A stretch of 64,000 bases of DNA from Limisphaerales bacterium (GCA_050949405.1 JBMNFQ010000001.1:2346727-2410726), one strand, 5' to 3'; positions 59,553-64,000 are shown, counted from the stretch's first letter. A program made the numbers and translations. The notes: generated by a model from the sequence alone, not told the origin.

Positions 59553-59954
59553 ATGAGTGTCCAGAGTGCAGCTATCCAGGTGTTGAAAGAGGCAGGCAAG
59601 CCGCTCCATGCCAATGAAATCGCCAAGCTGATCATCGAAGCTGGGCTCTGGAAGTCTGATGGTAAGACACCGGAGGCCACCGTTAGCGCCCGGCTCTACT
59701 CCGACATCAAGAGCAATGGGGATAAGTCGTGCTTTGTAAAAGTAGGCCCTCAGACCTTCGCACTTCGGGATTCCACAGAAATAGAGGGTGACACGGCGTC
59801 GGTTCTTGCACCTGTCGAAAAGCCCTCAAAACCTCATCCCATCAACGCGGGCTTTTCCTTCATCGATTGTGCTCAGAAGGTGCTTGAGGAGTTCAGCGGC
59901 AAAAATCCGATGCACTACAAGGAAATCACCGAGAAGGCGTTGGTTACCAAATGA
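59553..59954 (+). pseudogene. Truncated tandem HARE-HTH protein (probable N-terminal remnant of an Mrr-like restriction nuclease)
   Basis: One full HARE-HTH (AAIQVLKEAGKPLHANEI...GKTPEATVSARLY...FVKVGPQTFAL); a second copy (CAQKVLEEFSGKNPMHYKEITEKAL) stops halfway; GGAG RBS before ATG 59553. Confidence 0.7.
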
Positions 59955-61180
59955 GAGTTCTCCATACATCCGACTGGCATATCGGCCGCACTCTTTATGG
60001 CAGAAAACGCTACGAGGAGTTCGAGGCCTTTCTGACCTGGCTGGCTGAGACGATTCAGCAGAATGAAATTGACGCACTGCTGGTGGCGGGTGATGTCTTT
60101 GACACCAGCGCTCCGAGCAATCGCGCCCAGGAGCTCTATTACCGGTTTCTGTGCCGGGTGGCCGCTTCATCCTGTCGGCATGTTGTTGTCGTTGCGGGCA
60201 ACCACGATTCACCGTCCTTCCTCAATGCTCCCAAGGAGCTGCTCAAAGCCCTGGATATCCACGTGGTCGGTAGTAGCACGGAATCCCCGGAAGACGAAGT
60301 GCTGGTGCTCCGTAATGAGCAGGACGTTCCGGAATTGATTGTCTGTGCCGTGCCCTACCTTCGCGACCGGGATATCCGCGTGGCGGAAGCGGGTGAGAGC
60401 GTCGAGGACAAGGAGCGGAAACTGATCGAAGGCATTCGCACCCATTACGCCGCCGTCGCCGCCTTGGCCGAGCAGAAGCGCGAGGAACTCGGGGTCGATA
60501 TTCCCATCGTTGGCACGGGACATCTGTTCACCGCAGGTGGACAAACCGTCGATGGTGATGGCGTGCGCGAACTCTATGTCGGCTCCTTGGCTCACGTGAC
60601 TGCCGGGATTTTTCCTGCCTGCTTCAACTATCTGGCGCTGGGGCACCTCCACGTCCCGCAAAAGGTGAACGGCTCCGAAACCATTCGGTACAGCGGCTCT
60701 CCTCTGCCCATGGGGTTCGGAGAGGCAAAACAGCAGAAGAGCGTTTGCCAGGTTGAGTTCCACAGCACGGCTGCATCCGTACAGCTGATCGACGTACCGG
60801 TGTTTCAAAAGCTCGAACGCGTCAAGGGTGACTGGGACGGCATCTCAAGCCGCATCCTTGAATTGACGGCAACGGACACCCAAGGCTGGCTCGAAGTCAT
60901 CTACGACGGCACTGAGGTTATTGGCGACCTGCGTGAGCGCCTGGAGGCAGCGATTTCCGGCACCCAAATGGAAATTCTCCGGATAAAGAACAACCGCATT
61001 ATCGACCGCGTGCTGGGACAAATCCATGAAGAGGAAACGCTCGACGATCTGAACGTGGACGACGTATTCGAACGCTGCCTCGCCGTTCATGAGGTGCCTG
61101 AAGACCAGCGGCCTGAACTGCTTCGGGCCTACCAGGAAACGGTCTCGTCTCTCTATGAAGACGATGTGCAGGCGGAATAG
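59951..61180 (+). CDS. sbcD: SbcD (Mre11-family) nuclease
   Basis: HTSDWH, AGDVFD, GNHD, GHL, LGHLH; C-terminal SbcD domain. Confidence 0.95.
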   Translation: MRVLHTSDWHIGRTLYGRKRYEEFEAFLTWLAETIQQNEIDALLVAGDVFDTSAPSNRAQELYYRFLCRVAASSCRHVVVVAGNHDSPSFLNAPKELLKALDIHVVGSSTESPEDEVLVLRNEQDVPELIVCAVPYLRDRDIRVAEAGESVEDKERKLIEGIRTHYAAVAALAEQKREELGVDIPIVGTGHLFTAGGQTVDGDGVRELYVGSLAHVTAGIFPACFNYLALGHLHVPQKVNGSETIRYSGSPLPMGFGEAKQQKSVCQVEFHSTAASVQLIDVPVFQKLERVKGDWDGISSRILELTATDTQGWLEVIYDGTEVIGDLRERLEAAISGTQMEILRIKNNRIIDRVLGQIHEEETLDDLNVDDVFERCLAVHEVPEDQRPELLRAYQETVSSLYEDDVQAE

Positions 61181-61191
61181 AGAGGCTGTCG

Positions 61192-64000
61192 ATGAGAATC
61201 CTGCAGGTACGCTTCAAGAATCTGAACTCACTGGTCGGCGAATGGCAAATCGACCTGATGCACCCGGCCTTCGCGTCTGACGGAATCTTCGCCATCACAG
61301 GTCCCACCGGCGCGGGGAAGACCACGATCCTCGATGCTATTTGCCTCGCCCTTTACGGGCGGACGCCTCGCTTGAACAAGGTCACCAAGAGCGGAAACGA
61401 AATCATGTCCCGCCAGACCGGCGAATGCTTTGCCGAGGTGACCTTCGAAACCCAGTCTGGGCGTTACCGCTGTCACTGGAGCCAACACCGGGCACGCAAG
61501 AAGCCGGATGGTGAACTCCAGGCCCCGAAGCACGAAATTGCCAATGCCGATTCCGGCGAAATTTTCGAATCCAAGATCAGAGGTGTAGCCGACCAGATCG
61601 AGTCCGCTACCGGCATGGACTTTGACCGTTTTACCCGCTCCATGTTGCTGGCCCAGGGCGGCTTTGCCGCGTTCCTTCAGGCGGCACCGGATGATCGGGC
61701 TCCGATCCTGGAGCAGATAACGGGCACAGATATCTACAGCCAGATATCCATCCGTGTCCATGAGCGCCAACGTGAGGAGCGGGAAAAACTGAACCTGCTC
61801 CAGGCTGAAACGGCAGGTATCGTGATTCTTGACCCGGAGCAGGAACAAGAGATCGGGCAGGCACTCGAGACAAAGCAGAAGGAAGAGACAGACCTTGCCG
61901 CCAAATCCGCTGACACCGGGAAGGCCATTGCCTGGCTCACTACCATCGATGGGCTGAAGAAGGAAATCATCAACCTGGCCGATGAAGCGAGCAAGCTGCA
62001 GGGCGATATCGAGGCATTCAAACCGGACCGTGAAAAGCTGGACCGGGCTTTGAGCGCCGCCTCACTGGACGGCGCATACGCAACGCTCACCGCCACCCGC
62101 AAACAACAGGCGGATGAAAGAGCAGGCTTGAAAGCTGAGGAAGAGGCTCTTCCTGGACTGGAATCCTCCGCCAAGGAACAGGCCGAAGTACTGAAATCGG
62201 CTGAGCAACAAACCGCTCGGGCAAAAGAAGAGCTGAAAGCGGCCACGCCTACATTGCAAAAGGTTCGCTCCCTGGATCAGAAACTTGCCGATCAGAAAAA
62301 AGCTGTTTCGGAAGGTGATGAGGGCTGCAAGAAGGATGCGGCCAAGATTGACGCTGACAAAAAAGTCCGGCTTGATGAGCAGGTAAAGCGATCTACGGCC
62401 CATGAGACGCTGGAGCTTGTAGGCGGCTACCTCAAGGAGCATGCACAGGATGAATGGCTGATAAGTGGTCTGGCTGGCGTTGAAGAACAGATCGGCGGCC
62501 TGCTCTCCAAACAAAAAGAAATCGTTCAAAAAGAGGCTGCTCAAGAAGCGGCCAATACGACTCTGGAACTGGCGACAAAGTCACTCGACGACTGTCAAAA
62601 GCAATCCGGCATTCGGAAGCAGGAACTGGAGGACGCCTTAAAACAGCTTCAGCAGGGCAAAGATGCATTGAGCCAGTTGCTGGGAGACCGCTTGTTGCGG
62701 GAATACCGCACCGAGAAGGAAACCCTGCTGCGTGAAATGGCCTTCCTGACCAAAATTGCGGAACTTGAAGATCACCGGGCAAAACTGGAAGACGGCAAGC
62801 CCTGTCCGCTCTGCGGCGCGACCGAACACCCCTTCGCGGAAGGGAATGTCCCTGTCCCCGATGAAACCGAACGGAAGATCGATTCCCTGGCCAGCCTGAT
62901 CAGCAAAGCCGAGGACCAGGAAGCCGCCATCAAGAAACTCGAAGACGCTGAACGACTGGCCCGCACAAACCTTACGGATGGTGAAAAGCTGGAGTCAGCA
63001 GCGGCTAATGACAAGAAGGCTGCCGAGAAAGCCCTCGCCGAGGTGAAGGACGGCCTGGTGAAACTCCGTGCCGATTTTGCCGAACACAGGCAGGCTGTTG
63101 CTACCAAGCTCCAGCCGCTTGGTATTGCGGACATCTCCGAAACGGACATTTCATCACTGATCGAAACCCTCACGGCGCGGCTGAAGGCGTGGCAGGCCCA
63201 GGTCAAGAAAAAGGCGGACATCGAGAAACAGATTGCCGACATCGACAGCGAGGTGAAGCGGCTGGATGCGGTTATCGAAACTCAAAGCACCGCCCTGAAT
63301 GAAAAGCTGGAACGCCTGGAGACCTTGAAAAAGGATCTCGCCACCGGAAGTGATGAGCGCAATGCACTGTACGGCGACAAGAATCCCGACGATGAGGAGC
63401 GCCGTTTAAACAAGGCGATTTCGGATGCCGAAGGTGCCGAAAAGCAGGTCAGAGACCGGCACAATGAGCTCCAACAAAAATGGAATACCGCGAAGGCCCA
63501 TGTCGAATCTCTGAAGAAACGCATCGACCTACGAGAACCGGAACTGAGAAGGCTTGAAACAGAATTCTCCGCAGCGCTCGCGCCTGTTGGCTTTTCAAAT
63601 GAAGAACAGTTCCTGGCGGCCATACTGCCCTCTGAAGCTCGGGCGGAGCTGACAGCCACGGCCAAGGATCTTGATGAGCGTCAAACAGATCTGAAAGCCA
63701 GACAGAAGGATCGGGAAACGCGCTTGGCTAAGGAAGTGGCCAGCAAGATCACCGACAAATCATTGGAAGAGCTCGAGCCCCAATTCAAAAAGCATGAGGA
63801 GGCCCTGAAAGAGCTACGGGACATCATTGCCGGTCTCAAGCACAAGTTGAGTGAAAATGCGGCCGCTAAAGAGCGGATAAAGGAAAAGCAGGCAGCTATC
63901 GAGGCCCAGAAAAAAGAGTGCCGCAGGTGGGAAAACCTGCACGAATTGATCGGCTCCGCAGACGGAAAGAAGTACCGCAATTTTGCCCAGGGGCTGACCT
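61192..64000 (+). CDS. sbcC: SbcC (Rad50-family) ATPase, runs off the window end
   Basis: Not in the ORF track because it has no stop. MRILQVRFKNLNSL...ITGPTGAGKTTILDAICLALYG, LLAQG, zinc hook CPLC near 62805, ends in frame at IGSADGKKYRNFAQGLT. Confidence 0.95.
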   Translation, partial: MRILQVRFKNLNSLVGEWQIDLMHPAFASDGIFAITGPTGAGKTTILDAICLALYGRTPRLNKVTKSGNEIMSRQTGECFAEVTFETQSGRYRCHWSQHRARKKPDGELQAPKHEIANADSGEIFESKIRGVADQIESATGMDFDRFTRSMLLAQGGFAAFLQAAPDDRAPILEQITGTDIYSQISIRVHERQREEREKLNLLQAETAGIVILDPEQEQEIGQALETKQKEETDLAAKSADTGKAIAWLTTIDGLKKEIINLADEASKLQGDIEAFKPDREKLDRALSAASLDGAYATLTATRKQQADERAGLKAEEEALPGLESSAKEQAEVLKSAEQQTARAKEELKAATPTLQKVRSLDQKLADQKKAVSEGDEGCKKDAAKIDADKKVRLDEQVKRSTAHETLELVGGYLKEHAQDEWLISGLAGVEEQIGGLLSKQKEIVQKEAAQEAANTTLELATKSLDDCQKQSGIRKQELEDALKQLQQGKDALSQLLGDRLLREYRTEKETLLREMAFLTKIAELEDHRAKLEDGKPCPLCGATEHPFAEGNVPVPDETERKIDSLASLISKAEDQEAAIKKLEDAERLARTNLTDGEKLESAAANDKKAAEKALAEVKDGLVKLRADFAEHRQAVATKLQPLGIADISETDISSLIETLTARLKAWQAQVKKKADIEKQIADIDSEVKRLDAVIETQSTALNEKLERLETLKKDLATGSDERNALYGDKNPDDEERRLNKAISDAEGAEKQVRDRHNELQQKWNTAKAHVESLKKRIDLREPELRRLETEFSAALAPVGFSNEEQFLAAILPSEARAELTATAKDLDERQTDLKARQKDRETRLAKEVASKITDKSLEELEPQFKKHEEALKELRDIIAGLKHKLSENAAAKERIKEKQAAIEAQKKECRRWENLHELIGSADGKKYRNFAQGLT

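Follow-up and report, generated by a model that had tools for sequence, protein, structure and literature searches.

A mobile sbcD-sbcC cassette of defence islands, apparently joined by recombination to the tail of a BREX operon in a Limisphaerales bacterium

Introduction

Is an SbcCD nuclease that is encoded directly behind a bacteriophage exclusion (BREX) operon a part of that system, an immune module in its own right, or a repair enzyme that has come to lie there? The question is raised by a stretch of 64,000 nucleotides (nt) from a Limisphaerales bacterium (GCA_050949405.1, JBMNFQ010000001.1:2346727-2410726; this whole stretch is hereafter called the window), in which the genes sbcD and sbcC (together, sbcDC) follow a type I BREX operon on the same strand. 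Enzymes of the SbcCD family carry out ATP-dependent cutting of hairpins and of free or blocked DNA ends. In eukaryotes, Mre11-Rad50 restricts viruses; bacterial SbcCD is regarded as a housekeeping repair nuclease that is incidentally inhibited by phages. A preliminary description of the window had proposed that a mobile SbcCD clade serves here as a defence effector or as a BREX accessory.

Published work touches this question from several sides. TelN of phage N15 shields hairpin telomeres from SbcCD (PMC12624138), and transposon insertions in sbcD were among the hits from strains with suppressed conjugation resistance (bioRxiv 10.64898/2026.07.06.735840). The hairpins that trigger the ABC-ATPase tRNase OLD are removed by SbcCD, and deletion of sbcD potentiates OLD (bioRxiv 10.64898/2026.07.10.737580). 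Control of the RloC nuclease lies with a DNA-responsive ATPase resembling Rad50 (PMC3458546), and Lamassu has been proposed to be derived from SbcCD (PMC12663957). Our full-text literature search returned no description of a defence-island SbcCD cassette, nor of a linkage of RloC-like/PDC-S06 proteins or of BREX to sbcCD.

On balance, we favour the reading that sbcDC form a mobile cassette that circulates among defence islands and serves immunity. Its descriptive part, a mobile cassette among defence islands, we hold with high confidence, while the immune function, predicted from gene content and context, is an evenly poised proposition.

Results and discussion

SbcD and SbcC of the window

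The first gene of the mobile cassette, sbcD, occupies 59951-61180 (+) and encodes 409 amino acids (aa). Starting 11 nt past its stop codon and on the same strand as BREX, sbcC (61192-64000, +) runs through the end of the window without a stop, so that the window contains 936 of its approximately 1084 codons, counted from the start. SbcD has all five Mre11 phosphoesterase motifs (D8/H10, GDVFD at 47-51, GNHD at 83-86, GH at 190-191, and GHLH at 231-234), a recognizable phosphoesterase domain (PF00149, 7.9e-15; TIGR00619, 214 bits vs. a cut-off of 77.65), and the SbcC-binding domain SbcD_C (PF12320, 3.4e-17, residues 284-378). Its residues 1-401 align end to end with the Escherichia coli SbcD structure 6S6V (E 8e-78). 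The part of SbcC within the window contains the Walker A motif GPTGAGKT (residues 37-44), the Q-loop LLAQG, and a zinc hook, CPLC (residues 538-541, encoded at 62803-62814), which aligns with the E. coli hook. The C-terminal lobe lies outside the window and was read from a full-length copy (L089, 1084 aa) that is 98.5% identical; it has LSGGE at 984, LFLDE at 1013, and the SH of the H-loop at 1048, and the protein matches E. coli SbcC with an E value of 7.6e-137. In most relatives, full-length SbcC measures 1081-1094 aa. The intact phosphoesterase, Walker A, and zinc-hook motifs on which the preliminary description was built are therefore all present.

Both proteins score below the NCBIfam equivalog cut-offs, with 394.8 bits vs. 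450 for SbcD (NF008206) and 423 bits vs. 750 for NF007600, the query in the latter case being the SbcC truncated by the window end. Because SbcD falls below the enterobacterial equivalog cut-off, it belongs to a separate clade of genuine SbcCD. The two genes are thus predicted to encode a functional ATP-dependent nuclease of the SbcCD (Mre11/Rad50) type, with probable activity on hairpins and on free or blocked DNA ends.

Horizontal mobility of the cassette

Relatives were collected with one genome per species, which yielded 405 candidate stretches encoding a relative, and the best 80 were analysed as loci. These best 80 of 405 show protein identities of 75-96% and come from Desulfobacterota, Beta-, Gamma-, and Alphaproteobacteria, Verrucomicrobiota, Planctomycetota, Bacteroidota, Chlorobiota, Synergistota, Nitrospinota, and other groups. 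Isolates are among the carriers (Desulfobulbus rhabdoformis DSM 8777, Castellaniella ginsengisoli JCM 15515, Nitrosomonas nitrosa Nm90, Legionella qingyii, and Zymomonas mobilis AN0101). At the nucleotide level, the window sbcDC is 72-95% identical to the other copies. In nearly every locus, the DNA similarity begins at 59951 ± 10 nt, at the ATG of sbcD (18 nt earlier in three loci), and comparisons among the other loci place its end 16-22 nt short of the sbcC stop, with unrelated flanks. Given these limits at the sbcD ATG and near the sbcC stop, the shared mobile unit consists of two open reading frames (ORFs) of together about 4.48 kb, and no conserved upstream sequence of its own accompanies it. 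Its GC content ranges from 42% to 59%, partly tracking that of the host.

The window copy differs from those of Desulfobulbus and Castellaniella by a synonymous divergence (dS) of 0.21-0.27, and the median ratio of nonsynonymous to synonymous divergence (dN/dS) is 0.089 over 52 comparisons, the low values of both indicating recent transfer together with strong purifying selection. These comparisons strongly support the view that the cassette is horizontally mobile between distant phyla and not a vertically inherited housekeeping locus. The mobile SbcCD clade of defence islands that had been suspected at the outset is hence borne out by the nucleotide identities across phyla, by dS values of 0.2-0.3, and by upstream neighbours that are mostly defence genes. 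The idea that sbcDC is a vertically inherited anchor beside which islands insert is ruled out by the 95% nucleotide identity and the low dS across phyla.

One metagenome-assembled genome (MAG) of the Nitrospinota carries two copies, L049 (CALOCG010000029.1) and L072 (CALOCG010000024.1), whose SbcD proteins are 85% and 81% identical to that of the window and which follow two different AAA_13 genes; this pair may stem from a binning error. The clade is also very abundant among metagenome proteins, where the matches listed all reach E 1e-20 or better and the best 120 are at least 96% identical. No close copy was found among PLSDB plasmids, in which the best matches (64-67% identity over 12-14% of the query) lie in ordinary sbcC/sbcD genes, or in phage records (at most 41% protein identity), and 5,426 E. 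coli genomes gave no match to the cassette.

Exchange is also visible within the cassette. A longer SbcC (1223-1244 aa) is encoded in seven loci (L034, L054, L059, L062, L063, L074, and L083); its head domains match those of the others, and the coiled-coil middle (about codons 200-930) has no detectable DNA similarity. In locus L088, SbcD is 99.5% identical to the window protein but SbcC only 85%. Together, the divergent SbcC middles and the unequal identities in L088 point to recombination inside the cassette too.

Upstream partners of the cassette

To describe the neighbourhood, ORFs were called and clustered in the 80 loci, and a nearest upstream ORF of at least 150 aa was found for 75 of them. 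This ORF lies on the same strand as sbcD in 67/75 loci and abuts sbcD within 30 nt in 42/75, with an ATGA stop/start overlap between the two genes in many of the abutting loci. It encodes an AAA_13 ABC ATPase, belonging to one of four subfamilies, in 33/75 loci and HerA, preceded by SIR2, in 7/75, which together account for 40/75. Other genes that abut sbcD encode an SMC/LmuB-like ATPase, a UvrD/GajB-like helicase, or a GmrSD/HEC-06 protein.

The AAA_13 partners match the single-gene PADLOC candidate system PDC-S06 (up to 1119 bits) and, weakly, PrrC (about 1e-12). A central CxxC is common to all four subfamilies, as is an Rx4-6H motif in the last 110 residues (e.g. RINNEYSH), and a canonical Walker A is found in three of the four. 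Judged by these motifs, the AAA_13 partners share the layout of the RloC/PrrC anticodon nucleases, with a HEPN-like C-terminal motif. Furthermore, in at least 13 other loci without an intact partner, the final 20-150 nt of an AAA_13 or HerA gene have survived immediately 5' of sbcD, and loci of Nitrosospira are among those that retain such a 3' tail.

The genes 3' of sbcC are heterogeneous, and some are related to defence or mobility (pP_pnuc_1, GmrSD, AAA_15/21, resolvase, and IS66). A pP_pnuc_1 gene (about 385 aa), encoding a predicted pPIWI-associated nuclease, directly follows sbcC in five loci (L006, L012, L013, L035, and L091) and may be a further module of some cassette versions. Normally, the cassette forms the 3' end of an operon, most often behind a RloC/PrrC-like AAA_13 ATPase.

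The recombination junction in the window

How the window copy came to lie behind BREX is recorded in the short ORF between brxL (57502-59547, +; PADLOC BrxL, 3.4e-304) and sbcD. This chimeric gene remnant (59544-59954, +) encodes 136 aa with a HARE-HTH domain and the start of a second one (Pfam), and overlapping stop and start codons chain it to brxL (59544-59547) and to sbcD (59951-59954, ATGA at sbcD). Its relatives are proteins of 322-352 aa that comprise two HARE-HTH domains and Mrr_cat, a type IV restriction enzyme; the window ORF ends within the second HARE-HTH domain, with the terminus ...EKALVTK*. Up to position 59943, the ORF is the 5' part of such a HARE-HTH/Mrr restriction gene, and its last 18 nt, stop included, are the 3' tail of a gene for a 755-aa AAA_13 protein (PDC-S06, RloC/PrrC-like). 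In L088, L091, and L092, three loci with near-identical sbcD, the 755-aa AAA_13 gene stands directly before sbcD and ends in ...QMKALVTK*, and the tail DNA ATGAAGGCGTTGGTTACCAAATGA is identical between these AAA_13 genes and the window ORF. The DNA alignment places the switch from the Mrr-like to the AAA_13-tail sequence inside an 11-nt microhomology, GAAGGCGTTGG (59933-59943, +), which is common to both genes. No intact AAA_13 gene precedes sbcD directly in the window; the surviving stretch is 59933-59954, of which the first 11 nt are the microhomology.

In the nearest relative, a MAG of the Verrucomicrobia (L109), a match of 94.6% to the window runs from 57694 and breaks off exactly at 59943; this MAG has an intact Mrr gene and no sbcDC. 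Behind its brxL (L109:1851-6831) lie the intact gene for the HARE-HTH/Mrr protein and genes for a UvrD-like helicase, for DarT, and for an ADP-ribosylglycohydrolase with a fused glyoxalase-like domain, the last two being DarTG-like. Both parental arrangements were seen in contigs of digester metatranscriptomes, one of which reaches 59933 from the AAA_13 tail, while three leave the window match at 59938/59943 into intact Mrr sequence. The junction itself is 100% identical in the independent assemblies L001, L002, and L004 and in L093, and its presence at this identity in several independent metagenome assemblies indicates that it is real and not an assembly artefact. An exact SbcD look-up returned contigs of the same organism only, none longer than 4.1 kb, and the junction search of metagenome contigs returned one contig of 1.4 kb.

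Most simply, this arrangement is explained by the entry of an AAA_13-sbcDC unit through illegitimate recombination at a microhomology. The unit would have recombined at the 11 nt into the Mrr-type gene after brxL, which would have truncated the Mrr gene, while all but 18 nt of the ATPase gene would have been lost or would never have entered; sbcDC would then form the end of the BREX operon, its usual partner being absent. A role of the HARE-HTH ORF as a third subunit or regulator is ruled out, as it is a truncated Mrr-family gene. A small ORF in locus L022 is an independent fusion of HARE-HTH to an AAA_13 tail, at a different point. For annotation, the case calls for caution, since operon continuity with BREX is here a recombination scar and not designed coupling.

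Possible roles in immunity

If the cassette serves immunity, two roles can be envisaged. In a direct role, SbcCD would destroy hairpin-ended, linear, or palindrome-bearing DNA of invaders and their replication intermediates. In a partner role, it would clear the hairpins and ends that would otherwise trigger the abortive ATPase sensors in healthy cells, and a phage inhibitor of SbcCD would then unleash the ATPase sensor. Since the ATPase partner is gone from the window, only the direct nuclease role could remain there.

A bolder version of the partner role, which we put forward tentatively and with more doubt than belief, is that AAA_13 (PDC-S06) and the mobile SbcCD make up a three-gene "guard" system, in which SbcCD would act as the first-line nuclease and would also silence an abortive HEPN-type ATPase, so that a Gam- or TelN-like inhibitor would set off the ATPase. 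The SbcCD module would then be swapped among SIR2-HerA, SMC-like ATPases, helicases, and GmrSD, with a preference for the 3' ends of BREX.

Alternative explanations

The main rival explanation is plain housekeeping repair acquired by transfer, in which the cassette supplies SbcCD to genomes without it, for the removal of palindromes and hairpins and the processing of blocked ends, and the links to islands and BREX are functionally meaningless. We consider it unlikely, and yet a number of observations weigh in its favour or otherwise count against an immune reading. The proteins resemble ordinary SbcCD, being about 45-50% identical to those of E. coli (by eye, from the alignment), with full-length similarity and every catalytic motif, and they may act in repair after transfer; strong purifying selection would suit such a role. 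PADLOC has no model for the clade and returns only weak matches for SbcD (E 8e-6) and a family-level similarity of SbcC to LmuB (98.7 bits). In Nitrosospira, the cassette lies between non-defence genes, encoding Kup and a GGDEF/EAL protein. Many genes 3' of sbcC are housekeeping genes, for which reason islands often end at sbcC. That the junction in the window arose by accident is clear, and with the usual partner lost, any partner-dependent function is lost there as well. Many loci come from MAGs, and binning errors can inflate the taxonomic breadth, although isolates and single-contig chromosomes alone still cover several phyla. Finally, metatranscriptome contigs with at least 97% identity cover brxL through sbcC, which is consistent with expression but is no proof of co-transcription with BREX; the coverage may stem in part from DNA or from near-identical copies carried by other organisms.

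Against plain repair speaks the company that the cassette keeps. In most loci, sbcD abuts or overlaps genes for defence ATPases, and remnants of these genes persist elsewhere, Nitrosospira included. One MAG has two copies, and the coupling to at least six partner types indicates that the combination has been selected repeatedly. Moreover, near-identical DNA in several phyla is what defence genes typically show and repair genes seldom do.

A second alternative, which appears improbable, is that the operon acquired SbcCD as a dedicated accessory of BREX, for example to degrade phage DNA whose replication BREX has stalled. At first sight the window invites it. The type I BREX operon is complete (42162-59547, +), with all six core genes identified by PADLOC and encoded on the plus strand: brxA (42162-43094, 6.8e-111), brxB (43081-43632, 2.7e-81), brxC (43587-47084, E=0), pglX (47108-50533, E=0), pglZ (55154-57505, E=0), and the brxL described above. 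The observation that sbcDC continue the BREX gene chain with an island-like composition was confirmed, since strand and overlapping stop and start codons run on from brxL through the linker ORF to sbcD and the GC content of 0.563 in the cassette and 0.562 in BREX contrasts with 0.468 at window positions 1-33000 (56% vs. 47%). However, the linker consists of a truncated Mrr gene and the tail of an ATPase gene, and the nearest relative has BREX and Mrr without sbcDC.

The wider comparison points the same way. We examined 80 species-level relatives of the window BREX lineage (BrxL 82-99% identical to that of the window), of which 49 have at least 3 kb downstream of brxL. Among these 49, co-occurrence with sbcDC is limited to one or two. 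An AAA_13-sbcD-sbcC triad follows a window-type BREX in L172 alone, a Cloacimonadaceae chromosome (L172:10127-17282) with a PDC-S46 AAA_13 protein (744 aa), an SbcD that is 50% identical to that of the window, and an SbcC of 1225 aa; a possible second case is L143, where an AAA_13 gene is followed by a metallophosphoesterase. With an SbcD of only 50% identity, L172 shows that there is also a deeply diverged version of the ATPase-sbcDC triad. BrxL proteins with 82-88% identity to that of the window were also found in archaeal MAGs (L108, L110, L112, L121, L122, and L167) assigned to Methanobacteriota, Methanosarcina, Methanotrichaceae, Methanomicrobiales, and Bathyarchaeia, indicating a cross-domain spread of this BREX lineage if the binning is correct.

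Seen from the side of the cassette, a second BREX lineage, itself highly mobile and with BrxL proteins 74-100% identical among its members, lies upstream in 12/58 cassette loci with at least 5 kb of upstream sequence, in the order BREX, a variable AAA_13 or other gene, and sbcDC. This recurrence, together with the diverged triad of L172, speaks for an accessory role. Loci with the second lineage are L007, L009, L012, L013, L017, L018, L028, L033, L034, L037, L042, L054, and L083, and their arrangement fits an exchange of the middle gene between two conserved flanks. Nevertheless, another gene always separates BREX from sbcD, and BREX is absent from 79% of the cassette loci whose upstream sequence is long enough. 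A neighbour-joining tree of SbcD shows the BREX-linked copies, and likewise the partner types, intermingled, and the nearest neighbours of the window SbcD have AAA_13 or HerA partners and no detected BREX. The suggestion that BREX-linked SbcCD might form a clade is rejected by this tree, over which the BREX-linked copies are scattered, and the role of SbcCD as a dedicated BREX accessory at the window locus is not supported, given the recombination scar in the linker, the intact Mrr gene and missing sbcDC of L109, and the one or two comparable cases among 49 relatives. The recurrent adjacency may still reflect some loose functional relationship of BREX to the unit of ATPase and sbcDC.

Very improbable, lastly, is a pure self-protection module without antiviral action of its own, in which SbcCD only clears self-inflicted lesions or spontaneous hairpins of abortive systems and so lowers autoimmunity in a new host: SbcCD does suppress activation of the ABC-ATPase tRNase OLD by removing hairpins, the partners are effectors of the abortive type (HEPN-like ATPases and SIR2-HerA), and the RloC nuclease is regulated by a DNA-break-responsive ATPase (PMC3458546), but the cassette stays intact and under purifying selection after partner loss, in the window and in at least 13 other loci, and SIR2-HerA and PDC-S06 are PADLOC systems in their own right, with many copies lacking sbcDC and most PDC-S06 models consisting of a single gene.

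The favoured reading remains a mobile sbcDC cassette that circulates among defence islands and may serve immunity. If this is true, bacterial Mre11-Rad50 would be a mobile immune module that is wired into operons with abortive ATPases, and the gap between SbcCD and its proposed descendant Lamassu would be filled. It would also provide a testable model for how the autoimmunity of DNA-end and hairpin sensors is restrained and how Gam-type inhibitors of phages are detected.

Other features of the window

The pglX-pglZ gap of the BREX operon contains two additional genes on the plus strand, one for a TrlF/Ppl-like PHP-ABC ATPase (50530-53352, 940 aa; NF045780, 554.9 bits) and one for a GmrSD/BrxU-like protein (53361-55157, 598 aa; Pfam, NCBIfam, and PADLOC). 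This gap is a variable slot, which holds TrlF, GmrSD, both, or neither among the relatives of the window BREX lineage. The operon had been thought to carry two pairs of an SMC-type ATPase and a metallophosphoesterase; the sbcCD pair stands, whereas the other is the single fused PHP-ABC protein at 50530-53352 and not two genes.

In composition, the window falls into two parts, with about 47% GC at 1-33000 and 54-65% at 35000-64000. Within the latter, a segment at 35000-42000 has 59-65% GC, unlike both the core genome and BREX, and contains genes for DUF4815 (36400-38556), Amidoligase_2 (39076-40038), GATase_6 (40043-41353), and a GGACT cyclotransferase (41350-41949). An AAA_25 protein is encoded upstream of this segment on the minus strand (33842-34951). 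The island is a mosaic from at least two sources. No tRNA that could mark an integration site was found anywhere in the window, and a sigma-70 promoter scan of 57000-64000 found none, the promoter type of the host phylum possibly being different. A terminator-like hairpin with a T-run (59432-59454, +) lies within the 3' end of brxL and is a consensus match only. A core gene of the 47% GC part shares 78% identity with genes in Verrucomicrobiota MAGs, which makes the host a Verrucomicrobiota-like bacterium, and its DNA is common in metagenomes from anaerobic digesters and sludge.

Comparison with known systems

The closest known counterpart is E. coli SbcCD (6S6V, 6S85, and 7YZO), with which the window genes share the two-gene sbcD-sbcC operon, the five SbcD motifs and SbcD_C, and an SbcC with an ABC head, a long coiled coil, and a CxxC hook. 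They differ in that E. coli sbcDC is a fixed chromosomal locus, whereas the window clade is mobile, its copies in different phyla reaching 95% nucleotide identity, and is usually found at the end of defence operons, without its own conserved upstream sequence.

Lamassu (LmuA/LmuB/LmuC) likewise has an SMC-like zinc-hook ATPase that senses DNA ends and resides in defence islands, and SbcC weakly matches LmuB. In contrast to the reduced LmuC, the window SbcD is full length with all nuclease motifs, and SbcC, at about 1085 aa, is longer than LmuB (600-800 aa). Membership in Lamassu was rejected on account of the catalytic SbcD, the lack of an adjacent LmuA-like gene, and the weak similarity to LmuB (98.7 bits).

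The resemblance to RloC/PrrC and PDC-S06 concerns the AAA_13 partner of the cassette, with its ABC ATPase, coiled-coil/CxxC insert, and C-terminal Rx4-6H motif, and PrrC, which is held in check by a linked type Ic restriction-modification system, offers a precedent for pairing a nuclease with an ATPase. In the window, however, this partner is deleted except for its last 18 nt. BREX accessory genes of the BrxU/GmrSD type are similar in being extra defence genes within a BREX operon, and the window has GmrSD-like and TrlF/Ppl-like ones, but sbcDC is no recurrent member of the window BREX lineage and arrived via a junction that destroyed another gene. Judging by its sequence, then, the window locus is a member of the SbcCD family, neither a Lamassu system nor a component of BREX, and a degenerate derivative of an AAA_13-sbcDC module. 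The window copy is an ordinary-looking SbcCD in an accidental position, and it is the clade to which it belongs that is the interesting object.

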